From NCBI RefSeq assembly GCF_003334785.1, contig NZ_QOWV01000081.1: a stretch of 600 nucleotides of DNA; one strand, written 5' to 3'. The notes under the pieces were generated by a model that saw nothing but the letters and a program-made list of their open reading frames with translations, did no database searches and had not been told where the DNA came from. The translations under genes and the position numbers were made by a program. This document shows, piece by piece, positions 1-600 of this stretch. Within the stretch, counting starts at the first letter, position 1; the number at the start of each line of letters is the position of its first letter. Source of the DNA: Escherichia coli (GTDB lineage Bacteria; Pseudomonadota; Gammaproteobacteria; Enterobacterales; Enterobacteriaceae).

Positions 1-600
1 CCCTCATCCTCGCTGCGGATAAGTTTGCCGGTCAGGTCGTGGTGATAACGCTGTGTGCGGCCGTCAAAGCCGGTTTCCTGTATCAGCCGGTCAAGTACAT
101 CGTAACGGAAGGTGGTGTGGCTGCCGTTTTCACTGGTCAGGCGGATGACCCGTCCGGCAGCATCGTATTCCATACTGCGCGTCAGCCCGCCCTGCGTGGT
201 ACGGACGGCCTTTCCCCACGCATCGTACTGTGTCCCGTTTCTGCTGCCGTCCGGGGCAATGACGGCGGTCAGGTCACCGGCGATGTTGTATTCATACCGC
301 GTTTCATGGCCCTGCGTGTCTTTCACGGCAATTAACTGTCCACGGCTGTCGTATGCGCGGTACTGACTCAGCCCTTCCTCGCGGTGCACCGCCGTCATCT
401 GCTCGAAGCGGTCATGGTCATAACGGGTTACATAACCGGAACAGTCGGTGAAGCTCAGCAACTGACCGTAACGGCTCCACGTCATGGTTTTCCGGCTGCC
501 GGTGGCATCTTCCGTTGCGCAGGGTAAGTCACTGTGTGGATTATCATAACGGTAGCGGGTGATATCGCCGTCAGGGGCAGTTTCCTGAATCAGACGGCCC
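1..600 (-). CDS. Rhs-family YD-repeat core protein (polymorphic toxin shell), internal fragment; partial at both the 5' and 3' ends
   Basis: Seen in sequence: the reverse-complement frame with codons 599..597 down to 5..3 is open across the whole window (199 codons, no stop). Its translation carries YD dipeptides at about 21-residue spacing within motifs such as RYRYD, YRAYDSRGQLIAV, YEYNIAGDLTAV, MEYDAAGRVIRL, FRYDVLDRLIQE and RYHHDLTGKLI, matching the Rhs/YD-repeat consensus (roughly xRYxYDxxGRL). Established knowledge: this pattern defines Rhs/YD-repeat proteins (Pfam RHS_repeat PF05593, TIGR01643). From memory the residue string looks like the E. coli rhsA/B/C/D-type core, but I cannot assign a paralog or species without an alignment, so the gene symbol is left blank. 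No start or stop codon lies in the window, so the true gene extends beyond both edges. Confidence 0.93.

Follow-up and report, generated by a model that had tools for sequence, protein, structure and literature searches.

A 600-nucleotide stretch of Escherichia coli DNA lies mid-gene in a clade-I rhs element, with its toxin tip and immunity gene predicted farther downstream

A stretch of 600 nucleotides (nt) from Escherichia coli contig NZ_QOWV01000081.1, referred to throughout as the window, is the middle of an E. coli clade-I Rhs gene of the rhsA/B/C type, read on the minus strand. The Rhs family was founded on elements of E. coli K-12 that have been described since 1984, and the clade-I rhs genes are associated with the Hill laboratory. 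The best overall explanation, to which we attach a probability of about 0.85, is that the window is a mid-gene piece of such a gene and that a tip and immunity module lies downstream of it, as in relatives. Judging from those relatives, the tip and the immunity gene would lie some 1.7-2.9 kb beyond the edge of the window and would very probably be one of a few catalogued pairs.

Six-frame translation of the window gave no stop codon in minus-strand frame 2 and 2-13 stop codons in each of the other five frames. The stop-free frame yielded 199 residues with many YD-type repeat units, among them RYRYD, YRAYDSRGQL, TRYEYNIAGDL, MEYDAAGRV and FRYDVLDRL, amounting to approximately eight YD-type units of a beta-cage shell. 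An earlier note on this stretch had the Rhs gene reading right-to-left and running off the low-coordinate edge, and this was borne out, the only stop-free frame being on the minus strand with YD repeats continuing to position 1. GC content was even across the window (0.54-0.64), with no composition boundary at either edge. Plus-strand open reading frames (ORFs) of 98 and 84 amino acids (aa) were dismissed as antisense shadows of the Rhs frame, and Rfam returned no match on either strand of the window. The window residues were aligned to the YD shells of solved type VI secretion system (T6SS) Rhs effectors, namely Tse5 (E=2e-43), P. protegens RhsA, Tse15 and Tre23, with E-values from 2e-43 to 8e-23. 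The whole gene comprises approximately 1,400 aa in relatives, and 1,409 aa in strain E423, a relative considered at length below; NCBIfam RHS_core (NF041261) scored 2638 bits on a full-length relative, and TIGR03696 matched aa 1170-1247 of the E423 protein. The YD-repeat shell is thus carried in one long ORF, as in E. coli clade-I Rhs cores.

A Megablast search of 5,426 complete E. coli genomes with the window gave matches in 3,897 of them, at 16,556 places in total (median, 4 per genome). The best matches were 99.8% identical, the top 30 all being annotated as rhsA, rhsB, rhsC or RHS element core protein, and none of the genomes held a 600/600 match. Compared with rhsB of K-12 MG1655, rhsA of J53 and rhsC of strain 4/2-1, the window was identical at 599/600 positions in each case, the same base differing every time (T at position 403, hereafter T403), and it mapped to gene nt 1476-2075, or aa 492-691, in all three genes alike. 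Since all three references differ from the window by the same single base, rhsA, rhsB and rhsC are identical to one another over this stretch, and neither the paralog nor its tip can be read from the window. This near-identity agrees with Jackson et al. 2009 (PMC2935791). The likeness to K-12 rhsA/B/C extended from the nucleotide identity to the position in the gene, the core length and the motif PxxxxDPxGL at aa 1238-1247. Exact patterns covering the diagnostic bases of the window had no match in species-representative genomes, metagenome contigs or viral contigs, and exact look-up of four full-length proteins, made by placing the window residues in the E423, RhsA, RhsB and RhsC backbones, found none of them, nor the E423 protein itself.

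The layout below position 1 was read in four annotated relatives, the K-12-type rhsA, rhsB and rhsC loci and the rhsA locus of E423, and the tip of the source strain can be approached through these relatives only. The core ended at aa 1238-1247 in all four, with the motif reading PVTNTDPLGL, PISDIDPLGL, PISNIDPLGL and PVINVDPQGL and followed by tips of 130, 164, 150 and 162 aa, respectively. The motif started 1,637 nt and the tip 1,667 nt below position 1, so that the tip is not 'just beyond' the low edge as the earlier note had placed it; it was right that the window does not reveal how far off the core end is, which the relatives now set at 1.64 kb. The stop codon fell 2,059-2,161 nt below position 1, and the immunity gene ended at 2,445-2,922 nt. 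Around gene nt 3700 in E423, the locus that was profiled, GC content dropped from 0.57-0.68 to 0.31-0.47. A small same-strand ORF adjoined the rhs stop in every case: yibA began 20 nt and yibG 11 nt after it, yhhH overlapped it by 29 nt and ybfB by 1 nt. Farther on lay orphan rhs fragments with immunity genes of their own (a yibJ fragment with yibG, another fragment with an Imm57 pseudogene, and one orphan with ybfC), ISAs1/ISEc1 (H-repeat) transposase genes and, in some strains, the insertion sequence IS1A. Thus a core closing on PxxxxDPxGL, a short variable tip, a sharp fall in GC content at the boundary, a small ORF directly after the stop, and orphan cassettes with H-repeat or insertion sequence (IS) remnants (ISAs1/ISEc1, IS1) beyond it, all of which had been anticipated from the window, were found in the relatives, and the low-GC tip, abutting ORF, orphans and H-repeat/ISAs1 elements of the K-12 rhsA/B/C loci correspond to the predicted layout.

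The YD repeats of the window belong to the shell that surrounds the C-terminal toxin in solved Rhs effectors. If the source gene follows its relatives, the core would continue for 1,666 nt below position 1, ending at PxxxxDPxGL, and would be followed by a low-GC tip of 130-164 aa, with the immunity gene starting between 29 nt before and 20 nt after the rhs stop. Aspartyl autoproteolysis at the core boundary would then free the tip within the shell, with T6SS delivery in the homologues that have been studied (PMC8636562).

Four tip/immunity modules recur on this core. Counted at a coverage of at least 80% in the 5,426 complete genomes, RhsA-CT with yibA was present in 1,757, RhsB-CT with yhhH in 2,684, RhsC-CT with ybfB in 2,536 and the yibJ-type tip with yibG in 3,429 (~63%). 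In Pfam, RhsA-CT is Ntox34 and RhsB-CT is DUF4329; no family exists there for RhsC-CT or the yibJ-type tip. According to PMC3150448, Vlazny and Hill 1995 reported that RhsA-CT is toxic and that YibA neutralises it. This was the first report of an Rhs toxin/immunity pair. No functional studies of RhsB-CT/YhhH, RhsC-CT/YbfB or the yibJ-type tip/YibG were found in the literature, and PMC11551758 counts yibJ and yibG with the uncharacterised or pseudogene y-genes. All four modules are catalogued sequences, and RhsA-CT/YibA is genetically characterised. Among the immunity proteins, the N-terminus of YhhH is hydrophobic, and YbfB has the appearance of a membrane protein with multiple passes.

The earlier note had expected an undescribed toxin-immunity pair below position 1, and this did not hold up well: the window matches the textbook rhsA/B/C core of heavily sequenced E. 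coli at 99.8% identity, and each of the four modules occurs in 1,757-3,429 of the 5,426 genomes. Tips on this core are diverse, the 44 representatives sampled among proteins with this core end forming 22 tip clusters, 12 of them singletons; tips are also known to swap between loci (PMC2935791), and the source sequence was absent from every collection searched. However, the four largest clusters were those of the RhsB, RhsA, RhsC and yibJ types, which dominate the sampled representatives, and the sole genome sharing T403 carries a catalogued tip. An undescribed tip and immunity gene in the source is thus highly improbable. The note had also allowed that its expectation would fail for a tip identical to one already characterised, which would be the case here if RhsA-CT/YibA is present in the source.

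The one base in which the window departs from the reference genes offered a means of choosing between the four modules. A 61-nt query centred on T403 had a perfect match in only 1 of the 5,426 genomes, that of strain E423 (NZ_CM173464.1), at the rhsA locus flanked by yibH and yibF. At window position 350 (position 9978 of the retrieved stretch) E423 carries G, a change resulting in Asp576His that the window does not share; because of this difference, E423 counts as a relative but not as the source. T403 itself may mark a lineage, represent a mildly damaging mutation or reflect a sequencing error. The change it encodes, Gly558Glu, is non-synonymous and falls at the Gly position of the YD-repeat unit YDHDRFGQM. 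Relative to K-12 RhsA, the E423 core has two residue differences only, Gly558Glu and Asp576His, both within YD-repeat units, and the latter removes the D from a YD motif (AYDSRGQL to AYHSRGQL).

Since the very rare T403 is common to the window and the E423 rhsA locus, and since a second chance mutation at the same base is improbable, we favour an E423-type tip, in which the core is joined to a yibJ-type tip followed by yibG, as the probable module of the source. A less likely alternative is that the source carries a K-12 main module, RhsA-CT (Ntox34)/YibA, RhsB-CT (DUF4329)/YhhH or RhsC-CT/YbfB, with T403 then being an independent mutation, the result of gene conversion or a sequencing error. 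The equal identity of the window to rhsA, rhsB and rhsC (599/600) agrees with this alternative, as do the wide distribution of these modules (1,757, 2,684 and 2,536 genomes) and the rhsA/B/C or RHS element core protein annotation of the top 30 matches. In contrast, none of the RhsA-, RhsB- or RhsC-type genes in the 5,426 genomes carries T403, which was found solely in the yibJ-type gene of E423, and we consider independent mutation at the same base unlikely. Any other tip, catalogued or new, is less likely again than these three modules together.

In the E423 locus, the 1,409-aa full-length rhs gene runs into yibG after 11 nt. Compared with the K-12-type rhsA locus of J53, this locus lacks 1,754 nt that comprise RhsA-CT, yibA and the orphan's 5' end, and the gap is flanked by 453 nt of shared core-end sequence. 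The orphan (yibJ-type) tip thus sits on a full-length core, with RhsA-CT and yibA absent. Long cores joined to the yibJ-type tip were found in up to 927 of the 5,426 genomes (~17%), including enterotoxigenic E. coli (ETEC) H10407 and ML35; these two strains and FORC 064 have the same core-tip sequence as E423, FORC 064 having been inspected at the same locus. Recombination between main and orphan rhs tips has been demonstrated experimentally in Salmonella Typhimurium, where an orphan was loaded across 522 bp of homology (Koskiniemi et al. 2014, PMC3967940), and a C-terminal displacement model has been described, with tips exchanged between loci (PMC2935791). The geometry in E423, with 1,754 nt lacking between repeated core ends, matches the Salmonella orphan-loading event. 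The event may have been a deletion; alternatively, under the C-terminal displacement model, the fused E423-type form could be ancestral, the K-12 form arising by insertion of a new tip.

A frameshift, stop codon or IS between the window and the tip would leave the source gene a pseudogene with no functional toxin. The FORC 064 equivalent is annotated as frameshifted, IS1A interrupts tip/immunity modules in several strains, and Gly558Glu of the window replaces the Gly of a YD-repeat unit. Against this, the 199 codons of the window are intact and most relatives are annotated as intact, and we therefore regard a pseudogene as quite unlikely. In FORC 064, the yibJ-type full-length rhs (3846-8073 of the retrieved stretch) and several of its neighbours (yibF, selA region) are annotated as frameshifted, which suggests assembly errors rather than real pseudogenes.

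The yibJ-type tip, which we favour for the source, was predicted to adopt a caspase-like alpha/beta fold with an invariant His-then-Cys pair (His1277/Cys1317), and structure comparison of the AF2 model gave matches that include gingipain, CHAT, legumain and caspases. A Foldseek search of the tip against the PDB gave nothing at E<=0.001, the best matches being to a MARTX protease domain. The tip had no Pfam match even at E<=10 and no NCBIfam match; only 1 of 62 members of the tip family matched Peptidase_C80 at E<=0.001. A sequence search of the PDB with the tip alone returned nothing, a profile search matched just the Rhs core end in the flanks of the alignment, and NCBIfam was uninformative on two giant multi-copy relatives of the tip. 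The PADLOC library of anti-phage defence genes had no match for the window or the tip, and its match to YibG was insignificant. A papain-like toxin of the Cpe1 type was rejected on the order of the dyad and on the fold. In Pseudomonas aeruginosa, Tce1 and Tce2 (DUF4347) are putative cysteine proteases whose His/Cys dyad was aligned to that of TcdB (PMC13323088). The yibJ-type tip shares 11-14% identity with such clan-CD toxins (Tce1/Tce2 of DUF4347; MARTX, TcdA and TcdB of C80) and differs from them in its setting, sitting on an Rhs cage and paired with a SEL1-repeat protein, whereas the clan-CD toxins compared sit in Hcp or in large toxins. From the modelled fold and dyad we infer that the yibJ-type tip is a putative clan-CD (C80/DUF4347-like) cysteine protease toxin.

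Its partner YibG (7001-7462 of the E423 stretch, minus strand) is annotated as a SEL1-like repeat protein and has a hydrophobic start, MKACLLLFFYFSFICQLHG/ADV, which, read by eye, looks like a Sec signal peptide. With such a start, immunity and hence toxin action would be periplasmic, which suggests that YibG neutralises the toxin in the periplasm and that the toxin acts there. Taking these elements together, we tentatively propose, as a possibility on the doubtful side, that the source carries a yibJ-type tip and YibG on a full-length core, the tip being a clan-CD protease that an Rhs cage would deliver, with a periplasmic proteolytic target and with a secreted SEL1-repeat protein for immunity. 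An experimentally characterised Rhs toxin of the clan-CD protease kind with secreted SEL1-repeat immunity was not found in the literature.

With regard to delivery, the relatives differ from the Rhs effectors of known structure. The latter (P. aeruginosa Tse5, 8cp6; P. protegens RhsA, 7q97; Photorhabdus Rhs1-Tre23, 7pq5; Salmonella bongori Rhs, 8qjd) resemble the window and its relatives in their YD shells, which align with the window, in matching core ends, and in the logic of cage, autoproteolysis and C-terminal toxin (PMC8636562). In Rhs effectors the YD shell closes into a beta-barrel around the tip, and the tip is released inside it through aspartyl autoproteolysis at the two shell ends; Rhs proteins with PAAR travel on the VgrG spike of the T6SS, and an immunity protein guards the producer (PMC8636562). 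In contrast, the solved effectors have an N-terminus composed of prePAAR, a transmembrane domain (TMD) and PAAR, with adjoining vgrG and eag genes, whereas the E. coli relatives have DUF6531 and no nearby vgrG or hcp. The earlier note had advised a check of the upstream side for neighbouring vgrG, hcp or PAAR genes: no vgrG or hcp gene was found within 6-10 kb in the rhsA, rhsB and rhsC loci inspected, the upstream neighbours being yibF/selAB (rhsA), nikR/nikABCDE (rhsB) and ybfA/kdp (rhsC), so that the adjacent vgrG, hcp or eag genes typical of T6SS PAAR-Rhs loci were lacking in the relatives. In the E423 N-terminus, Pfam detected PAAR_motif only at aa 2-20 with an insignificant E=0.24, and DUF6531 significantly at aa 46-123. 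The N-terminus (within aa 1-45; position 11703 of the retrieved stretch downward, minus strand) reads MSGKPAARQGDMTQYGG, in which PAARQGDMTQY resembles the prePAAR motif AARxxDxxxH (PMC8636562) with Tyr replacing the Zn-binding His; this prePAAR-like N-terminus is followed by DUF6531 in place of a TMD-PAAR module. No delivery route was identified in the loci inspected for these E. coli clade-I Rhs proteins, which have no clear PAAR domain and no neighbouring vgrG.

The positions of features in the window, and of one IS1A-bearing stretch, are collected in Table 1. IS1A recurs inside the tip/immunity modules of several unrelated strains, within the yibJ orphan, RhsA-CT/yibA and the RhsB-CT module. 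In the rhsB locus, downstream of yhhH, a pseudogene annotated as 'lyase' (5030-5380 of the retrieved stretch, minus strand) is 95.7% identical to YibA residues 1-117; by this sequence identity, it is a fragment of an rhsA-type immunity gene within the rhsB locus, adjoining the ISEc1 transposase gene yhhI. A plasmid origin for the window was rejected, as only 10 records of the plasmid collection matched it, several of them tiny Klebsiella or E. coli records that seem to be stray pieces of chromosome. Three Klebsiella 'plasmids' in particular, NZ_CP069926.1 (5,191 bp), NZ_CP069827.1 (2,340 bp) and NZ_CP069916.1 (19,343 bp), carry E. coli-type rhsB/rhsD core at 83-99% identity and resemble stray chromosomal contigs or contaminants more than plasmids.

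Table 1. Coordinates of features of the Rhs gene segment in the window and of an IS1A-bearing stretch in a related locus.
Feature	Position (nt)	Strand	Remarks
Internal Rhs core ORF segment	1..600	-	Codons 493-691 at nt 599-3; sole stop-free frame
Codon 492, last base	600	-	Frame position
Codon 692 (Gly692 in relatives), first two bases GG	1..2	-	ORF runs on; no boundary, motif or composition shift
Best-scoring YD-repeat pair, gene aa 578-612	240..344	-	TIGR01643 YD_repeat_2x on E423 full-length protein
Single base differing from reference rhsA/B/C	403		T vs C; coding strand GGG to GAG, Gly558Glu in YDHDRF(G/E)QM
IS1A-bearing stretch, M217 rhsA locus	1719-2416 of retrieved locus stretch		

The layout predicted around the window is that of the textbook K-12 Rhs element and is already known. 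The case carries a lesson of method, in that neither the tip that follows nor even the locus can be identified from a window that falls within a core present in several near-identical copies. It also leaves a loose end outside the window, namely the yibJ-type tip and YibG, a pair that is common in E. coli and for which neither a family assignment nor an experimental characterisation was found, and yet whose tip models confidently as a predicted caspase-clan protease.
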